Source of the DNA: Coriobacteriia bacterium
Lineage (GTDB): Bacteria > Actinomycetota > Coriobacteriia > Coriobacteriales > RUG033
Reading direction: 5' to 3'
Length of the DNA stretch: 64,000 nt
Assembly: GCA_015655215.1 (NCBI GenBank)
Contig: JAATFL010000038.1
Span: forward strand, 2,157-66,156
The first letter of the stretch is position 1; each line of letters starts with the position of its first letter. Position numbers and translations under genes: made by a program. Of the stretch, positions 3,490 to 58,159 are shown in pieces. The notes below the pieces were generated by a model. It saw nothing but the letters and a program-made list of their open reading frames with translations, was not told where the DNA came from and ran no database searches.

Positions 3490-3507
3490 TGGTACCTCCT
3501 TGATCGT

Positions 3508-21835: not shown

Positions 21836-22001
21836 GCGCTCCTCCGAACCACTGGCACTGACCTTAGCATCTGGCATAATATTTCTGCGTATATTGAACA
21901 TTTTAATATATCCAGTTGTGAGTATACTTCTCTCGGAAGTTCCCTGGAGGACCTCCATGGAAACGATGTGGATTGCCCGGCAGGCGGGTGGGAAGAGGTG
22001 C

Positions 22002-25588: not shown

Positions 25589-26437
25589 CTACTTATACGA
25601 GTAGAACCCTTCCCCGGTTGCGATACCGAGTTTGCCCTCATCGAGGTACTTCTCCTTGACGATTCTGGAGAAGTTCTGCACATCCGGGTCCTTTGACATC
25701 GACATGATGTGGTAAGCGGTCTTCAAGCCAACGATGTCAAGGTACTGGAACGGCCCTTTGGGGGAACCGGTGCCGATGCGCCAGATAGCGTCGATATCAG
25801 TGGGCTCCGCATATCCACCACCGTACAGCTTTGAGGCGGCATCGAGGAAGGGGACGGAAAGCGAGTTGAGCAGCCATCCGGCCTTCTCCTTCTTGAGGGG
25901 CACGGCGACCATGCCGGTGTCCGTGGCGAACCGTACGACCTGATCGTAGACGGCTGGGTCGGTCTTGGAGGTGGCCATGACCTCGGCGCAGTTCATGGTC
26001 CAGATATGGTTGGCATAATGGAGGCCGAGGAACCTCTCGGGGCATCCCGTCGCATCCATCATGTCGCTCGGGAGCAGTGTGGAGGAGTTCGTGCAGACGA
26101 TGGTCCGATCAGGCAGGACACCTGCGATGCTTCGGTACAATGCACGTTTCTGCTCAAGGTCCTCGGTGATGGCCTCGATGACCATGTCCGCATCCGCGAC
26201 GGCAGCGATGTGGTCCGTGGTGTAGCTGATGTTGGCAAGCCCGTGCGCAATCTGATCGTCCGTGGTGCCGAGTATCTCAGCCTGGTACATGGTGGCGATC
26301 CCCTCGATGGCCTTCTTCGAGGCACTGAGGATGTCATCACTCAAATCGCAAGCCGTGACATTGAAGCCATGCACGGCGGTTTGGAACGTTATCTGCGACC
26401 CGAGAACGCCCACGCCGATGACGGTGATGTTCTTCAT
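25589..26437 (-). CDS. 3-hydroxyacyl-CoA dehydrogenase (Hbd-like), copy 1
   Basis: MKNITVIGVGVLGSQITFQTAVHGFNVTACD NAD Rossmann motif. The C-terminal domain has KEKAGWLLNSL and GPFQYLDIVGL. Confidence 0.85.
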   Translation of the reverse strand: MKNITVIGVGVLGSQITFQTAVHGFNVTACDLSDDILSASKKAIEGIATMYQAEILGTTDDQIAHGLANISYTTDHIAAVADADMVIEAITEDLEQKRALYRSIAGVLPDRTIVCTNSSTLLPSDMMDATGCPERFLGLHYANHIWTMNCAEVMATSKTDPAVYDQVVRFATDTGMVAVPLKKEKAGWLLNSLSVPFLDAASKLYGGGYAEPTDIDAIWRIGTGSPKGPFQYLDIVGLKTAYHIMSMSKDPDVQNFSRIVKEKYLDEGKLGIATGEGFYSYK

Positions 26438-26488
26438 AGTTCCCTCTTCCCAGATTATGAGCATGGATATGCGCTGATGCGCGGAATA

Positions 26489-27349
26489 CTACTTTCTATA
26501 GCTGTAGAAACCCTCACCCGTTGCAATGCCGAGCTTGCCTTCGTCGATGTAATCCGATTTGAGGACCGCGGCGAACTCCTTCGCGCCTGATACCTGGGCC
26601 ATCATGAGCACCTGGTACACGGTCTTGAGACCGATGACGTCCATGATCTCGAACGGACCACGGGGGGCACCGGTGCCGATGCGCCATATCGAGTCGATGT
26701 CCTTGGGTTCTGCATAGCCGCCAGCGTAGAGCAGGCAACCGGAGACGCACAACGGGACCAAGAGCGAGTTGAGCAGCCATCCGGCCTTCTCCTTCTTGAG
26801 CGGCACGGCGACCATGCCGGTGTCCGCGGCGAACTGCACGACCTCGGCAAACGCCGCCGGGTCCGTCTGGTCGGTACCCATGATCTCGGCGGAGTTCTGG
26901 ATCCAGATGTGGTTGGCATAATGGAGGCCGAGGAACTTCCCGGGGCGTCCGGTAAACGCGGCCATATCGCTGGGCAGAAGCGTGGAGGAGTTCGTGCACA
27001 CGATGGTCTTCTCGGGAAGGAGACCCGAGATGTCCTTATAGAACGTCTGCTTCTCCTTGAGGTCCTCGATGATCGCTTCGATCACCAGGTCGGCATCGGC
27101 GACTGCCAGTGCCCGGTCGGTCGTGTAGGTGATGTTGGCGAGCCCGCGTGCGATCTGCTCGGCGCTCGTGCCAGGGATCTCCTTCTGATAGCGCTCGGCG
27201 ATGCCAGCGATACTCTTCTTGGCACGATCGAGACTCTCCGCGCTCCTGCCGCATACGGTGACCCTGAACCCGTGCACCGCCGTCTGGAAGACGATCTGCG
27301 AGCCGAGCACCCCGTTGCCGAATACCGTCACGTTCTTCATGACCGTCAC
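26489..27349 (-). CDS. 3-hydroxyacyl-CoA dehydrogenase (Hbd-like), copy 2
   Basis: MTVMKNVTVFGNGVLGSQIVFQTAVHGFRVTVCG. A tandem paralogue of copy 1. Confidence 0.85.
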   Translation of the reverse strand: MTVMKNVTVFGNGVLGSQIVFQTAVHGFRVTVCGRSAESLDRAKKSIAGIAERYQKEIPGTSAEQIARGLANITYTTDRALAVADADLVIEAIIEDLKEKQTFYKDISGLLPEKTIVCTNSSTLLPSDMAAFTGRPGKFLGLHYANHIWIQNSAEIMGTDQTDPAAFAEVVQFAADTGMVAVPLKKEKAGWLLNSLLVPLCVSGCLLYAGGYAEPKDIDSIWRIGTGAPRGPFEIMDVIGLKTVYQVLMMAQVSGAKEFAAVLKSDYIDEGKLGIATGEGFYSYRK

Positions 27350-27430: not shown

Positions 27431-27730
27431 CTAACCGCATCGGTAACTGACGCCAAAGGTCCCTCGCGGATACGTCCACGTAGCCACGCCGCTGTTGCCC
27501 AACTGCCGGCATGCAAGACGGCATGTACCGCATTCGAGGCACCCAACATAATCGAACGCAAGTTTTCCATCGAGAAGCTTGTAGCACTGGGCGGGGCATA
27601 TGTAGAGGCAGGGCTTGTCACTGCACTCAAGGCAACACTCGCATTTGACTACGATATGGGCCTCGCCCTCATCCACGTTGAACTTATCGACCCCGAGCAA
27701 CTCCTCTGCACTCATCCTCTCGATGCTCAT
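27431..27730 (-). CDS. fixX: FixX-type ferredoxin with an additional N-terminal Cys motif
   Basis: MSIERMSAEELLGVDKFNVDEGEAHIVVKCECCLECSDKPCLYICPAQCYKL...FDYVGCLECGTCRLAC...YPRGTFGVSYRCG. ATG 27730 overlaps the fixC stop (ATGA). Confidence 0.8.
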   Translation of the reverse strand: MSIERMSAEELLGVDKFNVDEGEAHIVVKCECCLECSDKPCLYICPAQCYKLLDGKLAFDYVGCLECGTCRLACRQLGNSGVATWTYPRGTFGVSYRCG

Positions 27731-29046
27731 GATCCGTCCCCCTGCCGTAGAACCCGCCTGATCTTCCTGACATCCTTGAGGATTGCACCGAAACCGGTGT
27801 CCCCTTTGATACACGCCTTCAACTTTGGGTAGAGCGGTCTCCTCGAATCGGGGTCGAGGTGGTAGACCGTGGAGAAGATATCGTTTGCCAGTTTCGGGTA
27901 GATCGCAAAGATGCGGGGGTCATCCTCTATCTCGGGAAAGCGCGAGGCCATCTGCATCGCACGGTGTACTCCGAGTGCGTCGAGCTGCTCAGTGTAGACG
28001 GCACCTACATCTTCTGGGACACTGGTGGAGATGATCGCGTTGGCCGCCGCAAGGCCCGACAGGATGGCGAGGTCGATGCCCCGCACCGTGTAACCCTGGT
28101 TGACGGCAAAACCCGCCGCGTCCCCCGCCATGAGGAATCCGGTGCGGAACAGCTTCTCTGGCACAGCTTTGAGGCCGGCTTCGGGACAGAGATGCGCTGA
28201 GTACTCGATGGTGGTCCCGCCTTCGAGCAACGGTCGGATGGCCGGATGCATCTTCACATCCTGAAGCAGGTCGTGCACCGAAAGATGCTTTTGTGCAAGC
28301 ACGCTCGGGAGCAGCACGCACCCGAAGGAGATGCTCTCCCGATTGGTGTAGATGAACACGCCACCGTTGACACCCCTTGCTCCGCCAAGGGCCAGACGCG
28401 ACGCCCCCTCCCCTGCGGCGAGGGCGAAGCGGTCCTCGATGGTCCGTGCCGGCAGCGCAATCGTCTCCTTCGCCCCCACGAGCATATGCTCGACGCGAAC
28501 GTCGTCGATGAGACCGGCCTTCTGCCCCATGAGTGAGTTGGCACCGTCGGCTGCGACGACGATATCCGCAAACATCTCATCTCCGCCGGCACGCACGCCC
28601 ACGATCCCCCCGTCCCTCTCGATCAACTCATCGACGCGGATGCCACAGACGAGCATGGCACCTTTCTCCTCAGCCTGTCCGGAAAGCCACTCGTCGAACG
28701 TGGCACGCAGGACCGTATAGGACTCAGGAACCTTCCCCTCCTCGGCAAATGATGGGTCACCGTAGTCGATGCACAACGATCGTTCGCCATCGAGCATCAT
28801 CATCTGCTCATGGGTCACCTTGCGCTCGAGGGCTTCCTCCGCTTTGGCGGTAAGACCGTTATCGAGCATCTCGAGCGCGTAGGTATAGAACCTTCCACCG
28901 GTCACGTTCTTCGCCCCCGGCGTATCGGCCCTCTCTATCATCAGGACCTGCTTACCAGCCCGTGCCAGGGCATAGGCGCATGCCGCACCAGCCGGACCGG
29001 CACCGATGATGATTGCATCGAAGCGGTCGGATTCCTCCTCGTCCAC
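27727..29046 (-). CDS. fixC: FixC-type FAD-dependent oxidoreductase, copy 2
   Basis: DRFDAIIIGAGPAGAACAYALARAGKQVLMIERADTPGAKNVTGGRFY. Paralogue of 3792-5114. GTG start. Confidence 0.85.
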   Translation of the reverse strand: MDEEESDRFDAIIIGAGPAGAACAYALARAGKQVLMIERADTPGAKNVTGGRFYTYALEMLDNGLTAKAEEALERKVTHEQMMMLDGERSLCIDYGDPSFAEEGKVPESYTVLRATFDEWLSGQAEEKGAMLVCGIRVDELIERDGGIVGVRAGGDEMFADIVVAADGANSLMGQKAGLIDDVRVEHMLVGAKETIALPARTIEDRFALAAGEGASRLALGGARGVNGGVFIYTNRESISFGCVLLPSVLAQKHLSVHDLLQDVKMHPAIRPLLEGGTTIEYSAHLCPEAGLKAVPEKLFRTGFLMAGDAAGFAVNQGYTVRGIDLAILSGLAAANAIISTSVPEDVGAVYTEQLDALGVHRAMQMASRFPEIEDDPRIFAIYPKLANDIFSTVYHLDPDSRRPLYPKLKACIKGDTGFGAILKDVRKIRRVLRQGDGS

Positions 29047-29153: not shown

Positions 29154-30020
29154 TCAGAAGATGCGGTTTGGCTGACCGAAGATCGATGAATCGTACTTGC
29201 CCACGAGCAGCTTGGGAACGATGTCGTTTGCCTGGTCACCCATCGGAGTGAGCCCGAGGAACTTCAGGAGGCCGATGTCAAGCTTGGTCCAGCCACCGCC
29301 CAGGGACTGCACGACCGGCAAAGATGCCCACGGATCGTTGACGGAGGGCTGCAGGTTGACCTTGACGGACATCTTCTCCCAGCTCTTGTATGCCATGCGG
29401 CCGAGGACCTTGATCAGGAAGACGTTCGCGAATACGGGCGCGCCCTTCTCGTTGAACGAGGTACCGTACTTGTAGAAGTATTCGTTGCCATCGTTGACCG
29501 TACCTTCCTTGATGTCGCCGAATATCTGTGCGGCCATGGGGCTGTCGTACTCCCCGAGGTCGCACTCGACGTCGAAGACCTTGACACCCATGCGCTCGAC
29601 GCTCGCATATGCCTTATCGCCCAAGCGGCGCAGGTCGATCTTGTCGGCCGTCTTCTTGGGGATGCCCATACCCTCGCGTCCCTCGAAGACCGCGTTGTCA
29701 CCGCCCGTGAGAAGCATCTCGAACGGATACAGACCCACCTCCTTGCCGTCGGTGACGGGAGTGAGGATGGCCGACTCGAAGTACGAGGTGCAGAAGGTGG
29801 GGTCGTGCACCTCGATGACGTAGGAGGTGACGACGGGTGCGACCATCTGCAGAGGGGCCGGCAGTGCGGCCTTGAGCGCCTCGGGGTCGGTCGCCCAGGT
29901 GACGAACATGCCCTCGCAATCGTGCATCCACGAAGGATTGGCCCTCGTGCTGAGATAGTACTCGATCTCGTCCGGTGTCTTCACAAAACTGCAGTTTCCC
30001 ATGGTCCATGTTCCTTTCAT
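29154..30020 (-). CDS. acetoacetate decarboxylase (ADC) family protein
   Basis: FEGREGMGIPKK matches the ADC-family GRE-x-x-G-x-PKK catalytic-lysine region. The size (~285 aa) and beta-rich composition fit. The start is 30020 or 30002. Confidence 0.55.
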   Translation of the reverse strand: MKGTWTMGNCSFVKTPDEIEYYLSTRANPSWMHDCEGMFVTWATDPEALKAALPAPLQMVAPVVTSYVIEVHDPTFCTSYFESAILTPVTDGKEVGLYPFEMLLTGGDNAVFEGREGMGIPKKTADKIDLRRLGDKAYASVERMGVKVFDVECDLGEYDSPMAAQIFGDIKEGTVNDGNEYFYKYGTSFNEKGAPVFANVFLIKVLGRMAYKSWEKMSVKVNLQPSVNDPWASLPVVQSLGGGWTKLDIGLLKFLGLTPMGDQANDIVPKLLVGKYDSSIFGQPNRIF

Positions 30021-30111: not shown

Positions 30112-30852
30112 CTATTGCCGCTCCTCGCGTTGCCGGCGATGCATGGCCCTCAACTCACCAACCTCGTCGCACACGTCCTGGAAGTCGCAGTTATTGCAGT
30201 CGTATGCAAGGTGTTCGAGCATCTTGTCCATCGCGACGACTGCCCGGGCCACCTTGTCACCTAATGGCTTGAAACGCCTCACCTCCTCTGCCGAGGAGGT
30301 GACCATGATCACCTCCGCCGCATCGACGTATGGCAAGACCTTGAGTGCTCGGATGAGCTCGTTGCCCAGCACATCGAGCGAGAACCCCTCGTCCAGCGCC
30401 TGTTCGCTCACCCGCCCCCACTCCCTGTTTTGCTGCGGTGCAGCGTGCAGCATGTATCCGGACAGGTCGAGCTTGAGCTTAAGCCGGTCCATCTCCGAAT
30501 AACGGGAGTAAGCGTTTCCCTCGTCGAACCCATGGCCGGAGACGAGCACGACCTTACCGAAGGGGAGCTCCTGCGCATGCGTTTCACGCAGGTCAGGACC
30601 GATAAGCCTGATACGCCCATCGACGACCCGTTGGGCAGCATCGCTCCCCACGTCGGTCCACATGAGGAACGATGTGGACTCGCTTCCTGGCGCTCCCAGC
30701 TCCATGGCCATGTCCCCTGCCAAAATGATCTGGCGTTTGACCCTGGGCCACGAAATCTGGGTGTTGTAGGCAAACGTTCGAGTGCGATCGGCAAGGTCCT
30801 CTGCGCTTACGAGCTTGAGCATCTCATCGATGTAGGTGCTGAACATGGTCAC
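30112..30852 (-). CDS. hypothetical protein resembling the N-terminal/central domain of acetyl-CoA synthase (CdhC/AcsB), truncated before the Ni-binding Cys-Gly-Cys
   Basis: ILAGDMAMELGAPGSE, VVDGRIRLIGPDLRE, REWGRVSEQALDEGF and the C-terminal YDCNNCDFQDVCDEV appear in the same order as remembered CdhC motifs (GMFVELGGPKS, KVTIIGPDLKD, WMRVSKDTAAK, YGCTLCQSFAPTNVC). This recognition is from memory and needs an HMM check. Confidence 0.5.
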   Translation of the reverse strand: MTMFSTYIDEMLKLVSAEDLADRTRTFAYNTQISWPRVKRQIILAGDMAMELGAPGSESTSFLMWTDVGSDAAQRVVDGRIRLIGPDLRETHAQELPFGKVVLVSGHGFDEGNAYSRYSEMDRLKLKLDLSGYMLHAAPQQNREWGRVSEQALDEGFSLDVLGNELIRALKVLPYVDAAEVIMVTSSAEEVRRFKPLGDKVARAVVAMDKMLEHLAYDCNNCDFQDVCDEVGELRAMHRRQREERQ

Positions 30853-30959: not shown

Positions 30960-31169
30960 TTACACCGTTGCCTCAGGCGCCACCCTCGTGGCAGCCTGAG
31001 CCTGATCCCTCGCCGCATACTCGCTTGCCTTGCGCAGGGCGGCGACCTTCTTGAGGGTGGGTGTCATCCTGGCGACCATCACGTCGTCGAGGTCGAACCA
31101 GTAGATCAACCCCACGGCGATGCCCACGACGCCCAGAGCCGCCGTCACGTTCCCGAAGATGTTCTTCAT
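30960..31169 (-). CDS. small single-TM protein (69 aa), paralogue of 31197-31382
   Basis: MKNIFGNVTAALGVVGIAVGLIYWFDLDDVMVARMTPTLKK... AAGGAGG lies 7 nt upstream of the ATG. Confidence 0.55.
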   Translation of the reverse strand: MKNIFGNVTAALGVVGIAVGLIYWFDLDDVMVARMTPTLKKVAALRKASEYAARDQAQAATRVAPEATV

Positions 31170-31196
31170 CTCGCTACCTCCTTCTTGGACTCGCGC

Positions 31197-31382
31197 CTAC
31201 ATCTGCTTGGAGAGCATGGATTGCGCGACGCGCCTCTCGGTATCCTTCTTGATGTCGTCGAGCTTGAACTTGATGGGAAGTGCCGCCATCTGGAACTTGT
31301 CGTCCAAGTCGTACCGCTCGACCAGGATCGTGACCGCAAAGAGCACTCCGATGATCGAAAGCACTGACTTCAGATCCTTCAT
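31197..31382 (-). CDS. small single-TM protein (61 aa)
   Basis: MKDLKSVLSIIGVLFAVTILVERYDLDDKFQMAALPIKFK... GAGAGGGTGAG RBS. Shares the MK start, the TM helix, the DLDD motif and a downstream Pro/Lys pattern with the 69-aa neighbour. Confidence 0.55.
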   Translation of the reverse strand: MKDLKSVLSIIGVLFAVTILVERYDLDDKFQMAALPIKFKLDDIKKDTERRVAQSMLSKQM

Positions 31383-31495: not shown

Positions 31496-32323
31496 TCATG
31501 TGAACTTGCTGGCCAGAGCTTTCCTACGAGCGAACTCACAAGCCCCGATGGCACCCATGAGCTGGGGGTCCGTGTCCAACGTGACGAGCTCGAACCCGAG
31601 CATCCGGTCCATGGCCCGTTTGAGACCCCTGTTCTTGGCGCATCCACCCGCCATCGTGACCTCGCGTTCGATACCCGCGGTCTTGAGCAGGGTGTAGCAG
31701 CGCTTCGACACCGACGCCTGTATCCCGGCTGCGATATCCGCAGGCCGCTTCTTCTGCGCCAGAAGGCTGATGACCTCGCTTTCGGCGAACACCGTGCACT
31801 GCGATGAGATCGGGGTTGGACTGTTGGACTGGAGCGCGAGTTCGCAGAACGCGGGCAGGTCCATCTCGAACGCGCGAGCCATGTTCTCGAAGTAGCGTCC
31901 CGTACCAGCTGCGCACTTGTCGTTCATGGAGAAGTGCCGAACCGAACCATCCCCGTCGACCATGATGCCCTTGATGTCCTGGCCTCCGATGTCGATGATG
32001 GTGCGCACCGCGGGGTTGGTGAGGTGGACGCCCATCGCATGGCAACTGATCTCGGAGACGTTCAGGTCGCAGGTGGGGACGTAATTGCGCCCATATCCGG
32101 TTCCCACGAGATACGCGAGCCCACCTATCGAGGAGAACGCCTCGACCTCCTCACCCGCCGTCTCGATGGCGAGCTGAGCCGTCGACTCGGGGTCCATCTT
32201 GCTGCGCACGATCGACGAGCCCAGGATCGCTCCCGTCGAATCCATGATCACGGCCTTGCCGTAGGTCGACCCCACATCACACCCGCATACCAGTTCGGTC
32301 ACCACGACCGTCTCCCTTCGCAT
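31496..32323 (-). CDS. BcrAD/BadFG-type ATPase, activator of 2-hydroxyacyl-CoA dehydratase-like enzymes (HgdC/HadI-like)
   Basis: CDVGSTYGKAV, IIDIGGQDIKG, NDKCAAGTGRYFE and SQCTVFAESEVISL motifs. The two Cys residues sit at positions typical of the bridging [4Fe-4S]. The start is uncertain (32302-32356). Confidence 0.9.
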   Translation of the reverse strand: MRRETVVVTELVCGCDVGSTYGKAVIMDSTGAILGSSIVRSKMDPESTAQLAIETAGEEVEAFSSIGGLAYLVGTGYGRNYVPTCDLNVSEISCHAMGVHLTNPAVRTIIDIGGQDIKGIMVDGDGSVRHFSMNDKCAAGTGRYFENMARAFEMDLPAFCELALQSNSPTPISSQCTVFAESEVISLLAQKKRPADIAAGIQASVSKRCYTLLKTAGIEREVTMAGGCAKNRGLKRAMDRMLGFELVTLDTDPQLMGAIGACEFARRKALASKFT

Positions 32324-32349
32324 CGGCACGATGGCCGAGAGTCCTTCTC

Positions 32350-34026
32350 CTACCACGCTTGCGAGTCGTCGAATTCGAGAAGGCTCGGATCGAGGGGGTC
32401 GGCGTGCATGACGTTGAACATGAAGTTGTTGATCTGGGTGCGCATGCCCTGGCGGCTGACGACACGCGTGTCGAAGAAGTTGTAATCACACACGCAGACG
32501 GGCACGTGATCCTTGCCCCACTCGTTGAGGAACCCGGTAAGGCTCGTATACCCGCGGCAATTGAGATGGTTCATGTCGAGGATGAAGTCGGGCTGGTACA
32601 TGTCGTTGAGCGTGTTGAGACCATCGATCCAGTTCTCCGCGGGACCACGCATGTGGCGTGCCATCGCCGCGTCGCACCAGCAGTTCGCGAGACCCTCGAG
32701 CATCGTGTCGGGCGTCGACGTGTCGATGGTGTACGCGGTGCCGAACTCCTCCATGTCGTTGACGATCTCGATTCCCCAGCACCGCTCGACCCAACCGTAG
32801 ATGCCCGCGTAATCGAAGGGGGGCGTGCTCCACATGACGGTGCGATAGCGGATGTTCTCGAAACAGGGGGTCTGTGACGCGTAGTTTCGCAACGCGAGTG
32901 CGGTGATGCGCTTGTAGAGATCGACGTCCTCCTGCGTCGAGGCCGCCAGGTGAAACGCCGGCATGTATGCGTAATAGAGTGCATCGCCGGTAAGGGGCGG
33001 GTTCAAGGCGCGGTTGAGGTCCCACAGCTGCGTCCTCATCTTCGTGAGTTCGTTCTTGCGCTCGCACACCTCCTTGAGCCTCACCCAGTTCATCTTCTTA
33101 CCGGTATGCTCTTCGAGGAAGGCGACCATGCCCTTGATGTCCTCCACGAACGTCTTTGCGCCGGGATCCCCTGGATGGAAGTTGTAGGGGACGTCGAGCC
33201 AGTAGGTGGGGATGCCCATCTCCTTGATCATCATGCTGTAACCCTCGAAGTGCGCCTCGCACGGCATGTTGGTGGCGATGAGGCAGGACGCCTTCTTGAA
33301 GTACTCGTCCACCGCGAACATCCCGGGTGTCTGCGTGGAGTACGTGCAGGTGTTGTCGGGAAGACCTTGGGCGTACATCGCGTCGAGGTACTTCTCGGGA
33401 GCATGCTGGTCGTCGAGGCCGATCACGTTAGCCGCCGCCTCGACGAGGAACACCTTGATGCCCATGGCCTGCGTGATCTCGGAGGGGATCATGTCATGGG
33501 TCATGACGGTGTGCTCGGGGTCGGTGATGATGTTCTGCAGGCCTTCGACCGCCGCCTTCGTGGTGAGGACGAGTTCGCGGTACAACGCCTCCTTCGACGC
33601 ACCGGTGCGCCCGCGAGCAAGCGTCTTGGCCAGATGGGTCGTCTTGAGCTCGTCGAGGATCCATGGATAACGGAACATGGCGTCGGTCGTCTTACCTGAC
33701 TCCACCTTGGTGAGTGACATGGAGGCGGCCCACATCTTGAGCCAGTACTTGAAATCGATCCACTGGTCATGTAGGTTCGCCTGCTTATTCTTGTCGAGCG
33801 CAGCCTTGAAGGCAGCCTGTCCCTGGGGACTCGACGCCTTGGCGGCGAACTCCCCCACCTTGCCCACGCCCTTCATCACCGTCTTGTTGATGACCGCTGC
33901 CTTCACCCTGTCATCGACCATGTACGCACTCACGGCCCCGACACCCTTCATGAGCAGAGCGTTCCTGGTCCGCTCGTCGACGAGCGCCCTCTTGAGCGTC
34001 GCCTTGGTCTCCTCTTTCATCTTCAA
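32350..34026 (-). CDS. 2-hydroxyacyl-CoA dehydratase / benzoyl-CoA reductase BcrBC-family (HGD-D) large subunit
   Basis: 558 aa. The core from about residue 150 (VMTHDMIPSEITQAMGIKVFLVE...CLIATNMPCEAHFEGYSMMIKEMGIPTYWLDVPY...) is HgdA/BcrC-like. A ~110-aa Lys/Ala-rich N-terminal extension is present. The start lies 3 nt after the upstream stop. Confidence 0.8.
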   Translation of the reverse strand: MKMKEETKATLKRALVDERTRNALLMKGVGAVSAYMVDDRVKAAVINKTVMKGVGKVGEFAAKASSPQGQAAFKAALDKNKQANLHDQWIDFKYWLKMWAASMSLTKVESGKTTDAMFRYPWILDELKTTHLAKTLARGRTGASKEALYRELVLTTKAAVEGLQNIITDPEHTVMTHDMIPSEITQAMGIKVFLVEAAANVIGLDDQHAPEKYLDAMYAQGLPDNTCTYSTQTPGMFAVDEYFKKASCLIATNMPCEAHFEGYSMMIKEMGIPTYWLDVPYNFHPGDPGAKTFVEDIKGMVAFLEEHTGKKMNWVRLKEVCERKNELTKMRTQLWDLNRALNPPLTGDALYYAYMPAFHLAASTQEDVDLYKRITALALRNYASQTPCFENIRYRTVMWSTPPFDYAGIYGWVERCWGIEIVNDMEEFGTAYTIDTSTPDTMLEGLANCWCDAAMARHMRGPAENWIDGLNTLNDMYQPDFILDMNHLNCRGYTSLTGFLNEWGKDHVPVCVCDYNFFDTRVVSRQGMRTQINNFMFNVMHADPLDPSLLEFDDSQAW

Positions 34027-34029: not shown

Positions 34030-35211
34030 CTATTCCGCCCGAAGTGACAGGTCTGCGTTGAGCCTCTTCATGACGACGCTTTCGACGAACGCCTGGACAC
34101 GTGTCCTCAGTTGCCCTTCGCCACTCAGTTGGTACTCGCGCTCGAAGCGGACTGTTGGTATGCCCGCTTCCTGGCACGCCTTGTCGAGCTTGATGACCTC
34201 CCAACCCCACAGGTCACAGAACTTCATGACCTCGAGCATCACCCCGTCGACCTCGTAGGCGGCGGCCCAGTCGAGCATGTGCTCGATGCGATCGTCGAAC
34301 ATCTCGATCATGCGAGGGCAGTCGCTGTGCTCCATGAAGTGATGCGCGAGGTTGGCGTAGGGGTTGCCGTCCTCGGGGATCGGTTCGAGACCGGGCAGCG
34401 AGCCAAAGCAGTAGCGGTCCGCTACGACGATGCATCCCTGATCCTCGATGAGCTGCGTGAACGCGGGATTGTCGAACCGCGAGCCCATGACCATCACGCG
34501 TGGCACATCTTCCATGAATCCATCGCGTTTATCCAATGCCGTCTTGAGGCTTTTGAGAGGTTTGAGGAGAAGGTCGCGCGGAACAGCCTGGCAGGCGGTG
34601 AATACCGTGTGCCACTCGGTTCCGGAGATCTTGGGGTGGGCGTCGAGACGGAGGTCGGCGATCGACTTGAGCACGGCGTTGAACTCGTTGTACTCCCCGA
34701 TGGCCACGGCGACTGCCGCGTCGGACGTATCGACGCCGTAGTGCTCGGAAAGAGCCCCTCCCAATGTGCGCAGATCCTCCTCGAGCGCGTACATACCCGC
34801 CGGGAAGACCTTGCGGGGGGTGTCGATCACGTAGGAGAGGTAGTTCCGCTTCTCCCCGTTGACCCCTAGGAGCTTGAGATTGTGCTCGACGCGCTGGGTG
34901 TGAACGCAGCTTGCCGCGAACACCACCCCGTCCAGCCAATCGTAGACCCCGTCTAGGCCGGCTTGCAGGATGCAACGTGAATACGAGCAGTTGAACTGCG
35001 ACAGGTAGAAGTCGGCCAACTCGGTGCTCTGAACCTCAGGAGCCCTCAGGTGGATCGGAAACAACCTCCCCACGCTGAGCAACGGAGCGGGGACCATGCA
35101 GCAGTTGTATCCGATGGGCACCCCACCTTCCTCTATCGCCTGTTGCACGAGCGGGTTCTTCGAAGACGCGATAACGTCCTGAAAGACCTTCATCTCCTTC
35201 AACCGTTCCAT
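34030..35211 (-). CDS. 2-hydroxyacyl-CoA dehydratase / BcrBC-family (HGD-D) small subunit
   Basis: MERLKEMKVFQDVIASSKNPLVQQAIEEGGVPIGYNCCMVPAPLL...VFAASCVHTQR...VADRYCFGS...MKFCDLWGWE is HgdB/BcrB-like. ATG 35211 has an AGAGGAAGGGG RBS. The ORF-track extension to 35580 is spurious. Confidence 0.8.
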   Translation of the reverse strand: MERLKEMKVFQDVIASSKNPLVQQAIEEGGVPIGYNCCMVPAPLLSVGRLFPIHLRAPEVQSTELADFYLSQFNCSYSRCILQAGLDGVYDWLDGVVFAASCVHTQRVEHNLKLLGVNGEKRNYLSYVIDTPRKVFPAGMYALEEDLRTLGGALSEHYGVDTSDAAVAVAIGEYNEFNAVLKSIADLRLDAHPKISGTEWHTVFTACQAVPRDLLLKPLKSLKTALDKRDGFMEDVPRVMVMGSRFDNPAFTQLIEDQGCIVVADRYCFGSLPGLEPIPEDGNPYANLAHHFMEHSDCPRMIEMFDDRIEHMLDWAAAYEVDGVMLEVMKFCDLWGWEVIKLDKACQEAGIPTVRFEREYQLSGEGQLRTRVQAFVESVVMKRLNADLSLRAE

Positions 35212-35257: not shown

Positions 35258-36136
35258 CTACACGAGCACCCCGAACCTCTTGAGCGCCTGCGCCACCGCG
35301 ACCACCGACGGGTCCGTATCGGGTAGCTCGAGCAAGCTTCTGCCGGCGATGTCGAGTTTTCTGATGGGAGAATCCTCGATGACGCAACCCACCTGGTCGA
35401 TATCCCCCAGGTCGACCAGGTGGGCATCGGCCGGATCGACCACGCGGTTGAGCAGGACACCCACATGCTCGTAGTGCATGACCCCGCCATCGGCGACATC
35501 CCGTATCGTCCTGATGACGTTGATGCCCTTGAGACTGCAATCGGAGACGAGCAGCAGGTGCGTGACCGTCTCGAGCACACGACGGTTGACCTGCTCGATC
35601 CCGGCCTCGCCGTCGATCACGACGTAGTCGAAGCTGGCGACGAGCTCCTCGATGACCTCCTTGAGGTAATCGTTCACCTTGCAATAGCACCCTTCGGTCT
35701 CCGGGCGACCGATGGCGAGAAACGCGAAGTGCTCCCGCTCGGCCATCGCCTCGTACACTCGGTAGTCGAGTTCCTCAAGAATCGCCGCCACGTCCCCGGC
35801 CTCGCCCGTGCGACTGCTCCTGATGACGTCGTTCCTGATCTCATCGACGGTGTGCACCACGTCGACGCCCAACGCCGTGGCAAGGCCCACCGCCGGATCC
35901 GCATCGATGACGAGCACCTTCGCATCCGGACGCTCGGCGAGCAGGATCTTGGTGACCATGGCGGAGACGGAGGTCTTGCCCACGCCACCCTTGCCACATA
36001 TGGCCATGACCGTAGGTCTTGGACCGCCGGTGCCCTGGTGGGAGGCGCAACCGTGTCCGTGCCCATGCTCCTGATCCTGATCATGTTCATGGTCGTGCTC
36101 CTGGTGATGCTGATGCGCCCCACACTCCTCGCACAT
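35258..36136 (-). CDS. CooC/AcsF-like P-loop metallochaperone ATPase with Cys- and His-rich N-terminus
   Basis: MCEECGAHQHHQEHDHEHDQDQEHGHGHGCASHQ, then ICGKGGVGKTSVSAM (deviant Walker A), VIDADP, GCYCKVN (CooC CxC metal site) and IDGEAGIEQ. ATG 36136 has GGAGAGGAGGGA upstream. The alternative GTG 36166 overlaps the fixB stop. Confidence 0.75.
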   Translation of the reverse strand: MCEECGAHQHHQEHDHEHDQDQEHGHGHGCASHQGTGGPRPTVMAICGKGGVGKTSVSAMVTKILLAERPDAKVLVIDADPAVGLATALGVDVVHTVDEIRNDVIRSSRTGEAGDVAAILEELDYRVYEAMAEREHFAFLAIGRPETEGCYCKVNDYLKEVIEELVASFDYVVIDGEAGIEQVNRRVLETVTHLLLVSDCSLKGINVIRTIRDVADGGVMHYEHVGVLLNRVVDPADAHLVDLGDIDQVGCVIEDSPIRKLDIAGRSLLELPDTDPSVVAVAQALKRFGVLV

Positions 36137-36162: not shown

Positions 36163-37077
36163 TCACCGTGCCGTGACGAGTGCGTCAGTAAGCAAGGGGA
36201 CCACGGCATACAGGTCACCTACGATGCCAAAATCCGCTTCCCTGAAAATGGGAGCCTTTTCATTCTTGTCGATTGCGACGATCACCTTCGCATCGCGTAC
36301 GCCCACCATGTGCTGCACTTGCCCGGAGACACCCACGGAGAGGTACAGGTCGGGTGCCACACTCACGCCGGATATGCCCACGTACTGCTCAGCGGGAACC
36401 CAGCCCCGCTCCTCGGCGATGCCGCGGGTACAGCCGATCCGTGCATCCAAAGCCGCTGCCAGACCCTCGATCAACGCCATGTCCTCACGCTTCGAGACAC
36501 CCATGCCCACAGAGACGATCCGCGGAGCGCATGACAGGTCGGCCCCCTCTTGCGAGAGCGGCTCCCTCTCCACCAGGTGGACGCGCATATCTGGTTGGAT
36601 GACAATGGTCTCAAGTGGGGAGTCCACACCCCGTACCGCCTCGAAACGCCCTGATGGTATGGTGACGACAACCGGTGTGGAGAATTCCTCCGACCGCACC
36701 ATGGCACCCCCGTACATGAGGCGTTCGGTTGAAAGCTTGCCATCCAGGAGATGCACGGCAGAAACGTCACTGGCCATCCCACACCCGAGATAACCAGCCA
36801 CACGTGCCGCTAGGTCACGACCACGCGGCGTTGCACCTACGGCGAAGAGACTCACTCCCCACTCATCGATCAAACCTGCCAGGGCCCTCGCGTTATTTTC
36901 GGGGATATCACTATCCCCATCGAGCAGAACGACCTTTGATGCGCCACATCCCACAAGCTCGGAAGCTTCCTCGGGACTGAACGTGACGATGGTGACGTCG
37001 TGCTCTTCCTCACGGGCAAAACCTACCAGCTCTGCGGCAAGCGAGGGCTTATCGCTGTAGATGAGAACTTCGTTCAT
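36163..37077 (-). CDS. fixB: electron transfer flavoprotein alpha subunit, FixB type
   Basis: 304 aa. The C-terminus EQYVGISGVSVAPDLYLSVGVSGQVQHMVGVRDAKVIVAIDKNEKAPIFREADFGIVGDLYAVVPLLTDAL parallels E. coli FixB. Confidence 0.9.
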   Translation of the reverse strand: MNEVLIYSDKPSLAAELVGFAREEEHDVTIVTFSPEEASELVGCGASKVVLLDGDSDIPENNARALAGLIDEWGVSLFAVGATPRGRDLAARVAGYLGCGMASDVSAVHLLDGKLSTERLMYGGAMVRSEEFSTPVVVTIPSGRFEAVRGVDSPLETIVIQPDMRVHLVEREPLSQEGADLSCAPRIVSVGMGVSKREDMALIEGLAAALDARIGCTRGIAEERGWVPAEQYVGISGVSVAPDLYLSVGVSGQVQHMVGVRDAKVIVAIDKNEKAPIFREADFGIVGDLYAVVPLLTDALVTAR

Positions 37078-37844
37078 GAGAGCATCCCCTCCTTCTTGAG
37101 CGCGCTCACAAGTGAGGTGACCTTATCGGACGCATCGCCGTCAACAAAGATGACATTCCTCCGGTTGGCGATGAAACCTTGCGATGAGAGAACCTTCGCT
37201 GCGGGTGCAGGGTCGCACCCGAGCTCGGCAATGCCAAGCTCATGCAGTGGCTTCTTTCCGGCGGAGAGAACCGCCTTGAGCCCAGGGATGGGGGGTTCAT
37301 AGCCAGCCGGTAACACTGCGATCACGCAAGGACGGTTCACCGTGACGGTCTCAAGGCAACCGTCGAGCTTGCGCGTCGCGGTGATTGAGTCGCCTTCCAC
37401 CTTCATCTCGATGACCGAGGTGACCGTCGGCCAATCAAGCAGGGCACCGACCCTGGGAGCTATCTGCCGTGCATAGGTATCACTCGCACCCTCGGCGCAG
37501 ATGACGAGCGATGTGCCGTCGATCGTCCGTATCGCGCTTGCGAGCACCTGACTCGTAACCAGGGCGTCAGCGTCGCACGCCGCCGCATCACCGACCCAGT
37601 ACCCCGTCGCCGGCCCACGGCTCAGTGCATCCTTGAGGGATTTGCGCACGTCTGGGGTCCCGAAGGTCAGCGTCGCCGTCGCGTCGCCCGTCTGCGCGGC
37701 GACCTGCATGGTCGCCTCGATGGCACTCTTGTCGAATTCCGAGATCTTGCCACGTGCGTGGCTCACATCGATGGACCGATCCGGGTTGATTACCAGGTCC
37801 TCTTCATCGAGAACCCATTTATAGCAGGCGACGATCGTTGCCAT
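37074..37844 (-). CDS. fixA: electron transfer flavoprotein beta subunit, FixA type
   Basis: MATIVACYKWVLDEEDLVINPDRSIDVSHARGKISEFDKSAIEA (compare E. coli FixA MKIITCYKCVPDEQDI...). GAGGAGGA RBS. 4-nt overlap with fixB. Confidence 0.9.
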   Translation of the reverse strand: MATIVACYKWVLDEEDLVINPDRSIDVSHARGKISEFDKSAIEATMQVAAQTGDATATLTFGTPDVRKSLKDALSRGPATGYWVGDAAACDADALVTSQVLASAIRTIDGTSLVICAEGASDTYARQIAPRVGALLDWPTVTSVIEMKVEGDSITATRKLDGCLETVTVNRPCVIAVLPAGYEPPIPGLKAVLSAGKKPLHELGIAELGCDPAPAAKVLSSQGFIANRRNVIFVDGDASDKVTSLVSALKKEGMLS

Positions 37845-38021
37845 CGGCCATCCTCCTCTTCTTGACGGCATCGTCCTCGACACGGGCTCCCGACCGATGG
37901 GGCCAGTCAGGTCGCACCTGCCATCTGCGACACCATATGTGTTGTCCTTCGAGACATCTCGGCCATCCAGACGTTCTCGGATCGCCGCCGGGAAAGCTCG
38001 CGTGCGCTCTCGCCGATGGAT

Positions 38022-39185
38022 TCACGCCAACGGGTACTTGCCATACCTCATCATCGTGCCGATGAAGTCCTGTAGAGCCTCGATGGAGGCGCCACCGATG
38101 GCAAGGACCTTCGCGTCACGCCAGAAGCGTTCGACTCCGGTCTCGTCGATGCAGCCGACACCGCCGTATATCTGGATGGCCTCGCGAGCGACCTCCTCGG
38201 CCACCTCGGCACCGCGGATCTTGAGCATGCGGCCCTCGCACAGCTCGAGGTTGCCGGCGTCCTTGTCGGCGAGGGTGCCGTAGACGAATGCGCGAAGTTC
38301 CTCGATCATCGTGCGCATCTTCACGAGCTTGAACTTGGTCACCTGGAAACGGTCGTACATGGGCACTCCGTGCTGGATGCGGCTCATGCTGTAGTCGAAG
38401 GCCATCTGGTAGGCGGCCTCGGCCATGCCCAACCCTACCGGACCGCAGATGAGGAACTCGTTGGTGCAGCTCACAGCCGTCGCCTGCATGCACTTTCCCT
38501 CGGGGCCCAAGAGGTGATCCTTGGGGATACGCATGTCGCTGAAGGAGATGGTCCCGGTTGCGGAGCCGTGCCATCCCAGCTTGCGCTCGTAGGAGCCGAT
38601 CGTGAGACCTGAGGTGTTCTTGTCCACGATGAACGCGCTGATGCCGTCACGGGTGATGGGGTCCACCTCGGAGGTCTTGATGAAGATGATGTAGACGTCG
38701 GCGACACCGATGTTGCTCACGAGGACCTTGTTGCCGTTGATGACGTATTCGTCCCCATCGAGCACGGCGTTGGCGGCATGCTCGACATGGTTGTCGCCTC
38801 CTTCGGGTCCAGTCGAACCACAGGCGAAGATGTACTCCCCGCTGCAGAGCTTGGTAAGGTACTTCTCCTTCTGCTCGGGAGTGCCCAGCATGTTGAGCAG
38901 ACCGCCGGCCAACTCCGCGTGCGCGCCCATGTTGACGGTGAGCACCGGAAGCGATTTGGCGATCTCCTCGTAGATGAGCGCGGCGGTGGTGAAGTCCAGA
39001 CCGAGACCGCCGTACTGCTCGGGCATGGTGATGCCGAGGAACCCCAGCTCGCCCGCTCGCTTGAACAGCTGTCCCGGGAATTCGCCCGTCTCGTCGACCT
39101 GCAGCGCAACCGGGGCGACCTCCTTCTCCACGAACTTCTTCGCCGTGTTGACCATCAGTTGGCGATCCTCATTCATGTACCACAC
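38022..39185 (-). CDS. acyl-CoA dehydrogenase
   Basis: 387 aa. MNEDRQLMVNTAKKFVEKEVAP...GITMPEQYGGLGLDF...IQIYGGVGCIDETGVERFWRDAKVLAIGGASIEAL. GTG 39185 has GGAGAGGA upstream. Confidence 0.9.
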   Translation of the reverse strand: MWYMNEDRQLMVNTAKKFVEKEVAPVALQVDETGEFPGQLFKRAGELGFLGITMPEQYGGLGLDFTTAALIYEEIAKSLPVLTVNMGAHAELAGGLLNMLGTPEQKEKYLTKLCSGEYIFACGSTGPEGGDNHVEHAANAVLDGDEYVINGNKVLVSNIGVADVYIIFIKTSEVDPITRDGISAFIVDKNTSGLTIGSYERKLGWHGSATGTISFSDMRIPKDHLLGPEGKCMQATAVSCTNEFLICGPVGLGMAEAAYQMAFDYSMSRIQHGVPMYDRFQVTKFKLVKMRTMIEELRAFVYGTLADKDAGNLELCEGRMLKIRGAEVAEEVAREAIQIYGGVGCIDETGVERFWRDAKVLAIGGASIEALQDFIGTMMRYGKYPLA

Positions 39186-58145: not shown

Positions 58146-58159
58146 GCACCGTGGGATTC

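Follow-up and report, generated by a model that had tools for sequence, protein, structure and literature searches.

An acetyl-CoA synthase A2-like protein encoded with a CooC/AcsF-like ATPase beside genes of a benzoyl-CoA reductase/2-hydroxyacyl-CoA dehydratase-type enzyme

Until now, the fold of acetyl-CoA synthase (ACS) has been known from a single enzyme in a single pathway, the Wood-Ljungdahl pathway, and the CooC/AcsF ATPases have been linked with the insertion of Ni into CODH and ACS. In that setting AcsB, an ACS-type protein, and AcsF (CooC2), a CooC-type ATPase, are encoded next to each other. The locus described here has the same kind of pairing, set among genes for enzymes of the benzoyl-CoA reductase (BCR) and 2-hydroxyacyl-CoA dehydratase (HAD) type. 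The canonical bcr, bzd, and had operons are not known to contain CdhC-like or CooC-like genes. In the literature that could be searched, in which subscription journals were scarcely covered, we found no description of the short CdhC-like family or of a link between CooC and BCR/HAD enzymes.

The locus lies in a stretch of 64,000 nucleotides, referred to below as the window. A first-pass annotation had described one of its genes as a stand-alone, ACS-derived domain that lacks the Ni-binding Cys-Gly-Cys and has been recruited to a different enzyme. The sequence, profile, and fold comparisons given below support that description.

An ACS A2-like domain followed by three cysteines

A minus-strand open reading frame beginning with GTG occupies positions 30112..30852 of the window and encodes 246 aa, and all five peptide segments quoted in the first-pass annotation were found in its translation. 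Translation more probably begins at the ATG at 30846, since an AGAAGG Shine-Dalgarno sequence is located 5 nt upstream of this codon and an identical protein in the database, P0001, has 244 aa. The gene comprises the following features.

30112..30846, minus strand: CdhC-like (ACS A2-like) gene, 244 aa; Pfam CdhC, fold matches to ACS only, product identical to P0001
30214..30747, minus strand: ACS middle-domain (A2)-like fold, residues ~36-213; aligned to Moorella ACS 326-486, AF2 pLDDT >85 across the span, Foldseek
30160..30201, minus strand: D-C-x2-C-x5-C-D-E-V motif (C219, C222, C228), a presumed metal or Fe-S site; encodes DCNNCDFQDVCDEV

The resemblance to ACS stands above the Pfam threshold and far beyond chance. 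The protein matched PF03598 (CdhC) with an E value of 1.1e-10 and 42.1 bits, the gathering score being 24, and residues 43-188 were aligned with profile positions 14-153 of 155. A phmmer search of the PDB returned ACS chains only, pairing residues 36-192 with Moorella ACS 326-475, and with the family profile (E 3e-13) the PDB matches were again to ACS only, on the A2 domain. The AF2 model of the protein (pLDDT 86.9) superimposed on the ACS middle domain. All 22 Foldseek matches at E<=1e-3 were ACS or CdhC, the best being 1oao_D (E 8e-12, rmsd 2.8 A, 179 columns), and the top non-ACS match had an E value of 0.07. Every cut-off of the NCBIfam ACS equivalog models was missed approximately tenfold (34-42 bits vs 356-809).

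The fold of the protein is thus like that of ACS A2 (AcsB, Moorella 1OAO ~313-500; archaeal CdhC, PF03598), its sole fold match in the PDB. The two have in common the motifs G-D-M-x-x-E-L/M-G, D-G-[RK]-I-x-[LV]-I-G-P-D, L-P-x-G, and N-x-x-W-x-R-V-S-x-x-A-x-x-x-G-F, including the ELG, IGPD, and W-x-R-V-S elements of the A2-like region, and in both a C-x2-C...C sequence follows the A2 domain at nearly equal distance. Unlike ACS, the CdhC-like protein has no A1 domain, no A3 domain with the four A-cluster cubane cysteines (C-x2-C-x8-C-x9-C), and no Cys-Gly-Cys, the motif that binds the proximal and distal Ni in ACS. It has three cysteines with x5 spacing, compared to four cubane ligands with x8 in ACS, and its N-terminal helix of ~35 residues is unique to it. 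The first-pass annotation had allowed for at most three cubane ligands and no Cys-Gly-Cys, with the protein ending about 15 residues after the third cysteine; the 246-aa translation indeed contains exactly three cysteines, C219, C222, and C228 (246-aa numbering), has no Cys-Gly-Cys, and ends 18 residues past the third. No A3-like sequence occurs downstream of the gene, where an ADC-family gene comes next. The neighborhood also differs from that of ACS in its lack of CODH, CoFeSP, and methyltransferase genes; CODH, corrinoid protein, and methyltransferase domains were found neither in any sizeable window ORF scanned, in agreement with what had been claimed for the window, nor in the annotated related loci. 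Judged by the sequence comparisons and the modeled fold, the CdhC-like gene is a descendant of the ACS A2 domain, probably extending through the start of the A-cluster binding loop. Its product is no acetyl-CoA synthase (EC 2.3.1.169) and can neither form acetyl-CoA nor cleave it.

Since it covers no more than roughly a third of a bacterial ACS and lacks the active site, the gene might be taken for a functionless, decaying remnant or a mis-called fragment of a former ACS gene. The short form of ~240 aa was found in 263 clusters at 50% identity (E<=1e-30), and lengths were 225-270 aa for nearly all of the best 150 matches listed. Synteny was kept across Deltaproteobacteria, Clostridia, Actinomycetota, and Dehalococcoidia, and the GC3 of the gene, 0.76, is typical for genes in the window. 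The three cysteines of C-x2-C-x5-C were the only residues conserved in 100% of 156 family members, and the motif was present in 157 of 160 full-length members. The family-wide conservation, the invariant cysteines, and the GC3 refute the remnant explanation, against which the lack of downstream A3-like sequence also counts, and we give it practically no credence. A 390-aa CdhC-like ORF at another locus (L041), considered as a possible fusion, looks like an over-extended ORF instead.

The invariant family form of the motif, [D/E]-C-x2-C-x5-C, is situated where ACS begins binding its [4Fe-4S] cubane. The triad starts 16 residues past the point where the A2 alignment ends, the ACS cubane cysteines start 21 residues past the equivalent point, and the local pattern Y-D-C-x-x-C-x-F-x-x-V-C resembles Y-S-C-x-x-C-x-S-F-x4-V-C of ACS. 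When the C-terminal 66 residues alone were searched against the PDB, no ACS match was obtained (best E 0.9, to unrelated CxxC proteins), and the family HMM did not align its motif with the true ACS Cys segment. The three cysteines are nevertheless within ~5 residues of the expected place. The triad may therefore correspond to the first three ACS cubane ligands by position and pattern, which carry no statistical support, and we do not claim this homology as demonstrated.

The motif is set among acidic residues (D-C..C.F.D.V-C-D-E) and was poorly defined in the AF2 apo model (pLDDT ~50-60). Such a setting is unusual for a cubane and would also be compatible with a mononuclear site for Ni, Zn, or Fe. 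The window protein gave no Pfam match to Fer4, and its C-x2-C-x5-C differs from the ferredoxin motif C-x2-C-x2-C-x3-C-P. True ferredoxin motifs occurred only in P0028, a fusion to a 2x[4Fe-4S] ferredoxin domain forming a single 50%-identity cluster, where they belong to the added domain. One sub-branch of the family carries an extra fourth cysteine, giving C-x4-C-x2-C-x5-C.

The first-pass annotation had suggested a cluster- or CoA-binding adaptor. In the CoA version, the A2-like domain would bind the 3'-phospho-ADP part of an acyl-CoA or of CoA and present or sense it for the reductase or dehydratase, with the Cys triad serving as a structural Zn or Fe site. Acetyl-CoA is bound mainly by A2 in ACS, where the adenine stacks on Trp405 (C. 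autoethanogenum; equivalent to Moorella W427) by a Lys/Arg patch. The window protein retains this Trp and an Arg shortly after it (W145-x-R147-V-S), the Arg is kept in ~97% of members, and the companion enzymes described below all act on CoA thioesters. However, the Trp was kept in 117 of the 156 members and replaced in 39, whereas the Cys triad was never lost, and residues of the ACS Arg383/His386 type are not conserved. A CoA adaptor would also leave the obligate CooC-like ATPase unexplained, and in BzdNO the CoA moiety is held by the catalytic subunits themselves (PMC11971306). We regard the CoA version as highly doubtful; the cluster or metal half of the suggestion agrees best with the data, since nothing but the Cys triad is invariant.

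A CooC/AcsF-like ATPase and BzdNO-like subunits in the same operon

The remaining genes of the window operon, all on the minus strand, are given below in the direction of decreasing coordinates.

38022-39185, minus strand: acyl-CoA dehydrogenase (ACAD; Pfam)
37074-37883, minus strand: ETF beta (Pfam)
36163-37077, minus strand: ETF alpha (Pfam)
35258..36136, minus strand: CooC/AcsF-like P-loop ATPase (P0297, 292 aa as annotated; Pfam CbiA/ArsA/AAA_31)
34030..35211, minus strand: BzdN-like HGD-D subunit (HGDa; P0177, 393 aa; Pfam HGD-D; BzdN 8s02_B, E 1.9e-27)
32350..34026, minus strand: BzdO/HadB-like HGD-D subunit, catalytic type (HGDb; Pfam HGD-D; BzdO 8s02_A, E 3.7e-6)
31496..32356, minus strand: BcrAD/BadFG-type ATPase, the activase or electron-activating module, in single copy (Pfam PF01869, E 1e-52)
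30960..31382, minus strand: tiny paralogous ORFs of 61 aa (31197-31382) and 69 aa (30960-31169) (ORF list, alignment)
29154-30002, minus strand: ADC-family protein, downstream operon gene (Pfam/NCBIfam)
27727-29046, minus strand: FixC (Pfam/NCBIfam)
27431-27724, minus strand: probable FixX (weak Fer4 match)
26489-27349 and 25589-26464, minus strand: two 3-hydroxyacyl-CoA dehydrogenases (HCDH; Pfam/NCBIfam)

Homology in the CooC/AcsF-like ATPase begins at MAICGKGGVGKT, ~36007, and a C-Y-C metal motif is present. The best PDB match was CooC1 of Carboxydothermus hydrogenoformans (3kje, E 1.8e-12), with which the protein shares the deviant Walker A sequence GKGGVGKT and a CxC at the equal alignment position, CYC aligning with CYC. 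Among 73 partner ATPases, C-[YF]-C was kept in 71 and the deviant Walker A in 72. The partner family has an additional conserved cysteine directly before the P-loop, unlike CooC1 and the ATPase of the ACS-AcsF pair.

Co-occurrence was counted over 70 non-redundant loci. In 68 of these a CooC-like ATPase gene lay no more than 8 kb from the CdhC-like gene, and in 60 it lay within 300 bp; at L017 the CdhC-like gene is present and no CooC-like gene was found within 10 kb. At L059 the pair occurs with no BCR/HAD genes nearby, and at L080 the same type of enzyme occurs with no adjacent pair. This near-obligate CooC/AcsF-like partner had been missed by the first-pass annotation and is, in our view, the most informative fact about the locus. 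Cultured hosts of the pair are Desulfosporosinus fructosivorans (GCA_004766045.1), Tepidibacter sp. Z1-5 (GCA_037844525.1), and Desulfoluna limicola.

The BcrAD-type ATPase gene, whose product scored 207 bits above the cut-off of the NCBIfam model CoA_E_activ, lies within 300 bp of the CdhC-like gene in 57 of the 70 loci and within 8 kb in 64, and HGD-D genes lie within 8 kb in 59-61 of them. All six cysteines for the [8Fe-9S] double cubane, mapped against PMC11971306, are kept in the BzdN-like subunit (37/75/102/268/298/332). The BzdO-like subunit has an N-terminal extension of ~150-180 aa and three conserved cysteines, C227, C256, and C490; the two HGD-D subunits carry canonical Cys sets only. 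The window enzyme therefore has BzdN-like and BzdO-like subunits and a BcrAD-type ATPase in common with class I BCR BzdNOPQ (8S02; PMC11971306) and the 2-hydroxyacyl-CoA dehydratases (HadBC/HadI, 3O3M), and it differs from them in its single (homodimer-type) ATPase, its long BzdO-like N-terminal extension, and its tiny helix proteins. Open reading frames overlap within the locus, which is consistent with translational coupling. In gene order the CdhC-like gene comes after the ATPase genes, the place where bcr and bzd operons carry a dedicated ferredoxin gene (Fdx, BzdM); bacterial 2x[4Fe-4S] ferredoxins usually donate the electrons to BCR. Ferredoxin genes were found beside the pair in 13 loci and flavodoxin-ferredoxin genes in 19, and in the deltaproteobacterial layout the pair is located between two complete enzyme sets.

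Each of the tiny ORFs encodes one hydrophobic helix followed by [YW][FY]DLDDK, and such ORFs were called at the equivalent position in six other loci (L076-L079, L082, and L083). Pfam gave no match for them, nor for a ~490-aa family designated c5. We rejected ETF, ACAD, FixCX, ADC, and HCDH as parts of a conserved core, these being confined to the window-type lineage: ETF genes lie within 8 kb in only 2 of the 70 loci and ACAD genes in 20, ETF/ACAD genes also occur in the window-type loci L001, L078, and L079, and ADC, FixC, and FixX were also found in L079 and L078. Three ORF clusters near the pair (c6, c11, and c15) were likewise set aside, as they are on the opposite strand and have no Pfam match; members of c6 overlap real genes and are most likely antisense artefacts.

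Possible roles of the pair

We tentatively propose, with a little less than even confidence, that an ACS/AcsF-type pair was co-opted to form an accessory module of two genes for a radical enzyme of the BCR/HAD family that is BzdNO-like and ATP-dependent. The three cysteines would bind a metal center, most likely a [4Fe-4S] cubane whose remaining ligand is open or not a cysteine; an additional metal ion is conceivable. Using ATP, the CooC-like partner would load or repair this center on the CdhC-like protein, much as AcsF acts on ACS. Once loaded, the CdhC-like protein would be a redox-active accessory subunit that supplies electrons to the BcrAD electron-activating module or gates their entry.

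Because CooC-type ATPases are known solely as Ni-insertion factors, a role in maturation only fits at least as well as that of a redox subunit. As an assembly scaffold or adaptor, the CdhC-like protein would dock the CooC-like ATPase and transiently hold a metal or Fe-S center on its three cysteines; it would not be part of the working enzyme, and the cofactor would be inserted with ATP hydrolysis into a client, which might be the bridging [4Fe-4S] of BcrAD or the [8Fe-9S]/[4Fe-4S] clusters of HGD-D. The characterized CooC/AcsF ATPases are all known as maturation factors, and the conserved CxC metal motif of the partner and the acidic, flexible Cys motif, which is like a metallochaperone site, are in keeping with such a role. 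The pair is also the tightest unit (68 of 70 loci), it can exist without the enzyme genes (L059), and its deltaproteobacterial position between two enzyme sets is as expected of a shared factor. On the other hand, the ferredoxin fusion and the four-Cys variants are more suggestive of a stable redox protein than of a carrier that acts transiently, and the canonical bcr, bzd, and had operons are not known to include the pair. Moreover, BzdNO and likewise DCCP reportedly acquire [8Fe-9S] on heterologous production without CdhC-like or CooC-like partners. If so, no special factor would be required for the cluster, and a need for the pair in [8Fe-9S] assembly was downgraded for this reason. Overall, we judge the scaffold role to be somewhat unlikely.

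It seems unlikely that the pair is a hitherto unrecognized, ACS/AcsF-descended metallocluster assembly or insertion system for a special center in a large BCR/HAD branch. That center could be a Ni-containing or heterometallic Fe-S site, or a double cubane pre-assembled between two three-Cys protomers, which together have six cysteines, the number needed by the [8Fe-9S] cluster. The A2 domain with the first cubane loop would in that case be the element recognized by CooC/AcsF ATPases, in ACS included. By analogy only, the arrangement recalls a NifH-type SIMIBI ATPase and its scaffold in P-cluster and FeMo-co assembly, with a MinD/SIMIBI ATPase and a Cys-bearing partner beside a double-cubane-type enzyme, and some partner ATPases gave weak or faint Fer4_NifH Pfam matches. 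Unlike in Nif, the CdhC-like protein has no sequence relation to NifEN or NifDK, and the ATPase, whose closest match is CooC, does not have the cluster ligands of NifH.

We also considered that the pair might install or carry Ni, either on the three cysteines of the CdhC-like protein or in a new kind of Ni-Fe-S site within the enzyme, which would make this a Ni-dependent BCR/HAD branch. The CooC/AcsF family is specific for Ni insertion into Ni-Fe-S clusters, and C222, the middle cysteine, presumably matches in position ACS Cys509, the residue that bridges the cubane to the proximal Ni. Isolated NikR (L006) and HypA (L080) neighbors were seen, but each in only 1 of ~80 loci, and the window ORFs scanned included no Ni transporter. 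In contrast to ACS-AcsF and CooC1, the neighborhood thus gives no signal for nickel as the cargo. The client here, unlike that of AcsF, has no ACS-type Ni site, since Cys-Gly-Cys and the other ACS Ni ligands are absent, and the HGD-D subunits show canonical Cys sets only. A nickel site is improbable in our estimation.

Here the ACS fold and a CooC/AcsF-type ATPase form a conserved pair, found across hundreds of genomes together with another enzyme family, that of the ATP-driven Birch-type reductases and ketyl-radical dehydratases, which are mechanistically extreme. The branch of BCR/HAD enzymes concerned is large and uncharacterized and spans gut-type Actinomycetota and Clostridia as well as hydrocarbon-degrading Deltaproteobacteria. 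If the pair handles a metal center, this branch would have an unrecognized cofactor need or electron-entry route, and the CdhC-like protein would provide a soluble, 244-aa minimal model of client recognition by AcsF/CooC ATPases. The pair would then also represent an evolutionary link between ACS and the BCR/HAD metalloenzymes.

A short relative of the acetyl-CoA synthase middle domain

The open reading frame in which the first-pass annotation had recognized a shortened acetyl-CoA synthase (ACS)-like protein proved to be real, and all of the peptides quoted for it were found in its translation.

30112..30852, minus strand: CdhC-like gene, whose 246-residue numbering is retained here
30160-30201, within that gene: encodes the peptide DCNNCDFQDVCDEV

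Translation likely starts at the ATG at 30846, which is preceded by an AGAAGG ribosome-binding site 5 nt upstream, with the GTG at 30852 falling within that site. This start gives a protein of 244 residues equal to the database family protein P0001, and identical copies are present in public assemblies. The only cysteines are C219, C222, and C228, in keeping with the proposed maximum of three cubane ligands; there is no fourth cubane cysteine, and the Ni-binding Cys-Gly-Cys is indeed missing. The chain does end shortly after the third cysteine, with a tail of 18 residues rather than the approximately 15 claimed.

Sequence, profile, and structure searches each independently put the likeness to ACS beyond chance. 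A phmmer search of all PDB sequences returned only acetyl-CoA synthase chains, with residues 36-192 aligning to residues 326-475 of Moorella ACS, that is, to the middle (A2) domain. Pfam placed the protein in the CdhC domain family (PF03598; E 1.1e-10, 42.1 bits where the gathering threshold is 24, 140 of the 155 profile positions). A profile built from 20 family members matched Moorella ACS (331-486; E 3e-13) and Methanosarcina CdhC (17-184; E 6e-9). The AlphaFold2 model (mean pLDDT 86.9, pTM 0.83) matched 22 PDB chains at E<=1e-3, every one an ACS/CdhC; the top match was 1oao_D (E 8.3e-12, rmsd 2.8 A over 179 columns), and the first non-ACS match followed at E 0.07.

The CdhC-like protein is nonetheless not an acetyl-CoA synthase, as curated ACS models scored it at 34-42 bits against cut-offs of 356-809. 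Unlike ACS it has no A1 domain, and A3, four cubane cysteines, the Cys-Gly-Cys, and pathway neighbours, each of which defines an ACS, were all found lacking. Among the sizeable open reading frames of the 64-kb window scanned with Pfam there was no CODH, corrinoid protein, or methyltransferase, as the first-pass annotation had held. Nor is the protein a ferredoxin by motif. The original reading of an ACS-derived domain without the Ni-binding motif, at work in another enzyme, is supported and narrowed to A2.

A word-indexed search gave 26 clusters of 238-249 residues. When 1.84 billion cluster representatives were scanned exhaustively with HMMER, 807 matched at E<=1e-3, of which 549 reached <=1e-10 and 263 reached <=1e-30; among the matches listed, nearly all of the best 150 are 225-270 residues long. 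Once 156 diverse members were aligned, C219, C222, and C228 were the only invariant positions, followed in conservation by E51-L52-G53, G85, G132, R136, R147, and G156; Asp or Glu precedes the first cysteine in 141 of the 156. The C-x2-C-x5-C pattern is kept in 157/160 full-length members, even where divergence defeats Pfam: a 240-residue protein from locus L083 (23% identity, E 4e-19) reads D-C-A-V-C-P-L-E-I-I-C-D-D. A fragment of an ACS gene was ruled out by this uniform length and cysteine invariance, which mark a stable family. Automated annotation calls its members "hypothetical" or "CO dehydrogenase/acetyl-CoA synthase beta subunit".

Gene neighbourhood and the host enzyme

The CdhC-like gene lies within a long minus-strand operon, transcribed in the following order:

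41700-39361, minus: two-component regulator
minus: acyl-CoA dehydrogenase, then ETF beta and ETF alpha
35258-36136, minus: MinD/ArsA-class P-loop ATPase (CooC-like), PDB best match CooC1
34030-35211, minus: HGD-D gene, BzdN-like
32350-34026, minus: HGD-D gene, BzdO-like
31496-32356, minus: BcrAD-type ATPase
31197-31382, minus: tiny helix ORF, 61 aa
30960-31169, minus: tiny helix ORF, 69 aa
minus: CdhC-like gene
minus: acetoacetate-decarboxylase-family gene, FixC, probable FixX, two 3-hydroxyacyl-CoA dehydrogenases

For the first HGD-D product, the nearest match is BzdN, from class I benzoyl-CoA reductase (E 1.9e-27). The [8Fe-9S] double cubane of BzdN is held by Cys36/73/100/263/293/327 (PMC11971306), and since all six positions align with cysteines in the window protein, it is predicted to be a double-cubane protein. 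The BzdO-like subunit has three conserved cysteines, as in the catalytic [4Fe-4S] subunit. It also carries an N-terminal extension of ~150-180 residues found in neither BzdO nor HadB, with a motif common to orthologues (D-Q-W-x-D-F-K-Y-W ... Y-P-W ... L-K ... G-R-x-G). The tiny ORFs are paralogous and match no Pfam family; in each, a conserved [YW][FY]DLDDK comes after a single hydrophobic helix. Either might serve as a membrane anchor or as a small subunit of the enzyme.

Scanning a single genome from each species revealed 68 loci, mostly in Smithella/Syntrophaceae, Desulfobacterales (including Desulfosudis oleivorans and the isolate Desulfoluna limicola ASN36), and Myxococcota, with a few in Actinomycetota, Dehalococcoidia, Syntrophomonadaceae, and Lachnospiraceae. 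Neighbours were counted by distance from the CdhC-like gene.

Table. Neighbours of the CdhC-like gene in 70 non-redundant loci (within 300 bp; within 8 kb)
CooC-like ATPase: 60/70; 68/70
BcrAD ATPase: 57/70; 64/70
HGD-D genes: 2/70; 59-61/70
ACAD: 0/70; 20/70
ETF: 0/70; 1-2/70
FixC: 0/70; 3/70
ADC, HCDH: 0/70; 0/70

These counts place ACAD, ETF, FixC, ADC, and HCDH outside the core. Two layouts were observed:

Deltaproteobacterial, with overlapping reading frames: (ACAD-ACAD)-unknown ~490 aa-HGD-(tiny)-HGD-BcrAD-BcrAD-CdhC-like-CooC-like-(flavodoxin/ferredoxin)-HGD-HGD-(ferredoxin protein)-BcrAD
Window type: CooC-like-HGD(~390)-HGD(~480-560)-BcrAD-tiny(1-2)-CdhC-like

The second is found in the window, L001, L004, L078 (Desulfosporosinus fructosivorans), L079, L082 (Tepidibacter sp. 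Z1-5), and L083, with the tiny ORFs always between the BcrAD and CdhC-like genes. The ~490-residue "c5" family, whose gene immediately precedes the first HGD-D gene where the layout is deltaproteobacterial, is present in 47/70 loci (for example L009 4376-5869, L049 4377-5852, and L006 1722-4141), is broken into 2-3 ORFs in Smithella, and has no match in Pfam.

There are informative exceptions. At L059 (9878-11387), the 8 kb around a CdhC-like/CooC-like pair contain no benzoyl-CoA reductase/2-hydroxyacyl-CoA dehydratase (BCR/HAD) genes, and the neighbours there are an amine-oxidase-like flavoprotein, an AIM24-domain protein, and an acyl-CoA ligase; L010 (10001-10723) is an orphan CdhC-like gene adjoining recC/recB-like genes; L017 has a CdhC-like gene without the ATPase; and L080 has the enzyme genes and one tiny ORF with no adjacent pair. 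Together with the counts, these identify the CdhC-like/CooC-like pair as the tightest unit.

Elsewhere in the window, the following were observed:

1411-11002, minus: second redox/CoA block, encoding a 692-aa fusion of an old-yellow-enzyme-type flavoprotein with a Pyr_redox_2 domain, another FixC-like protein, a pair of MFS transporters, and two family-III CoA-transferases; an OYE-type enzyme resembling this one lies directly 3' of the CdhC-like gene in L083, and others in L072 and L073
23961-25502 (plus), 45498-47027 (minus), 54807-56354 (plus): three LuxR/GerE-type regulators, ~510 aa
47116-48870 and 53020-54621, plus: fumarate-reductase-like flavoproteins (FAD_binding_2) flanked by two of these regulators, an arrangement reminiscent of Eggerthellaceae-type inducible reductase loci
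56394-60792: Ser/Thr kinase and PP2C phosphatase, upstream of the next feature
60552-63566, plus: one 1004-aa ORF joining an FtsW/RodA/SpoVE domain to a class-B penicillin-binding transpeptidase
20375-22898: divergent GntR-aminotransferase (MocR/PdxR-like) regulator and PdxS (SOR/SNZ), arranged as in a classic PdxR-pdxS pair; because their 5' ends overlap as mechanically called ORFs, both genes must truly start further in

The cysteine triad and the partner ATPase

The family profile alignment stops at residue 484 of C. hydrogenoformans ACS, about residue 203 of the CdhC-like protein, leaving 21 residues to the first cysteine in ACS versus 16 here. The ACS cubane ligands are C505-x2-C508-x8-C517-x9-C527 (7zkj_B), and L-A-Y-D-C-N-N-C-D-F-Q-D-V-C is similar to T-Y-Y-S-C-L-L-C-Q-S-F-A-P-T-H-V-C of ACS with a 3-residue deletion. 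By position and pattern, the triad resembles the ACS ligands. The C-terminal segment searched by itself did not have ACS among its matches, and the family HMM did not align the two motifs when run against the ACS cysteine segment. The model has pLDDT ~50-60 around the motif, a low value that is to be expected where a metal site is modelled without its metal. A sub-branch with C-x4-C-x2-C-x5-C (family proteins P0122 and P0169; a fourth cysteine in 11/156 overall) and P0028 (308 aa), a natural fusion with a 2x[4Fe-4S] ferredoxin domain at its C-terminus, favour an Fe-S cubane; the strongly acidic sequence around the motif would be equally fitting for a mononuclear Ni, Zn, or Fe site.

The top PDB match of the partner ATPase was the nickel-insertion ATPase CooC1 (3kje, E 1.8e-12), and its C-Y-C aligns exactly on the metal-binding C-Y-C of CooC1. 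C-[YF]-C occurs in 71/73 partner ATPases and GKGGxGK[ST] in 72/73; automated annotation names them "CO dehydrogenase maturation factor". A third cysteine stands right before the P-loop (A-x-C-G-K-G-G-V-G-K-T; ~35990-36007, minus strand, in the window) in at least 90% of 69 partners (L001-L075), where CooC1 has Ala. Nickel as cargo of the pair, which overlaps the other readings, is quite unlikely; the neighbourhoods lend it no support, with NikR at 1 locus and HypA at 1 locus. That the CdhC-like protein is a CoA-binding adaptor is likewise quite unlikely. ACS binds acetyl-CoA chiefly via A2, with the adenine stacked on the Trp of W-x-R-V-S, and W145 and R147 are retained in the window protein, but the Trp is missing in 39/156 members whereas the cysteines are lost in none, and the ATPase is left without explanation.

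A proposed role for the pair

The simplest account is the joint co-option of an ACS/AcsF-type pair, client and maturase together, with the client cut down to A2 and the first cubane-binding loop. AcsF, in the work of Gregg et al. 2016, is reportedly a CooC-type ATPase loading Ni onto [4Fe-4S]-containing ACS of the Wood-Ljungdahl pathway, and the CdhC-like protein would be a putative counterpart of the clients or partners of CooC/AcsF ATPases. A metal centre would be bound by its three invariant cysteines, the likeliest form being a cubane whose fourth ligand is non-Cys or open, and the CxC ATPase would load or repair this centre.

The holo protein might then serve the electron-activating BcrAD module, a role we propose tentatively, as somewhat short of probable, from the gene order, the ferredoxin fusion, and the recurrent ferredoxin or flavodoxin genes, which adjoin the pair at 13 and 19 loci. 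In bcr/bzd operons, the ferredoxin gene sits after the BcrAD-type genes, the place taken here by the CdhC-like gene. That the pair is instead scaffold or chaperone only, a pure assembly factor for the clusters of the enzyme, is rather unlikely; it agrees with the known job of CooC proteins, but would be weakened if BzdNO, and likewise DCCP, form [8Fe-9S] in heterologous production without CdhC-like and CooC-like partners, as the BzdNO study is said to have found. The function of the CdhC-like protein is constrained to a putative part in handling a metal centre, within an ATP-dependent enzyme system that is BzdNO-like.

In the full-text literature searched, which takes in few subscription journals, we found no description of the short family or of its BCR/HAD link. 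The presence of ACS and CooC modules outside C1 metabolism would surprise a specialist, and as cultured hosts of the pair exist, the question is directly testable.
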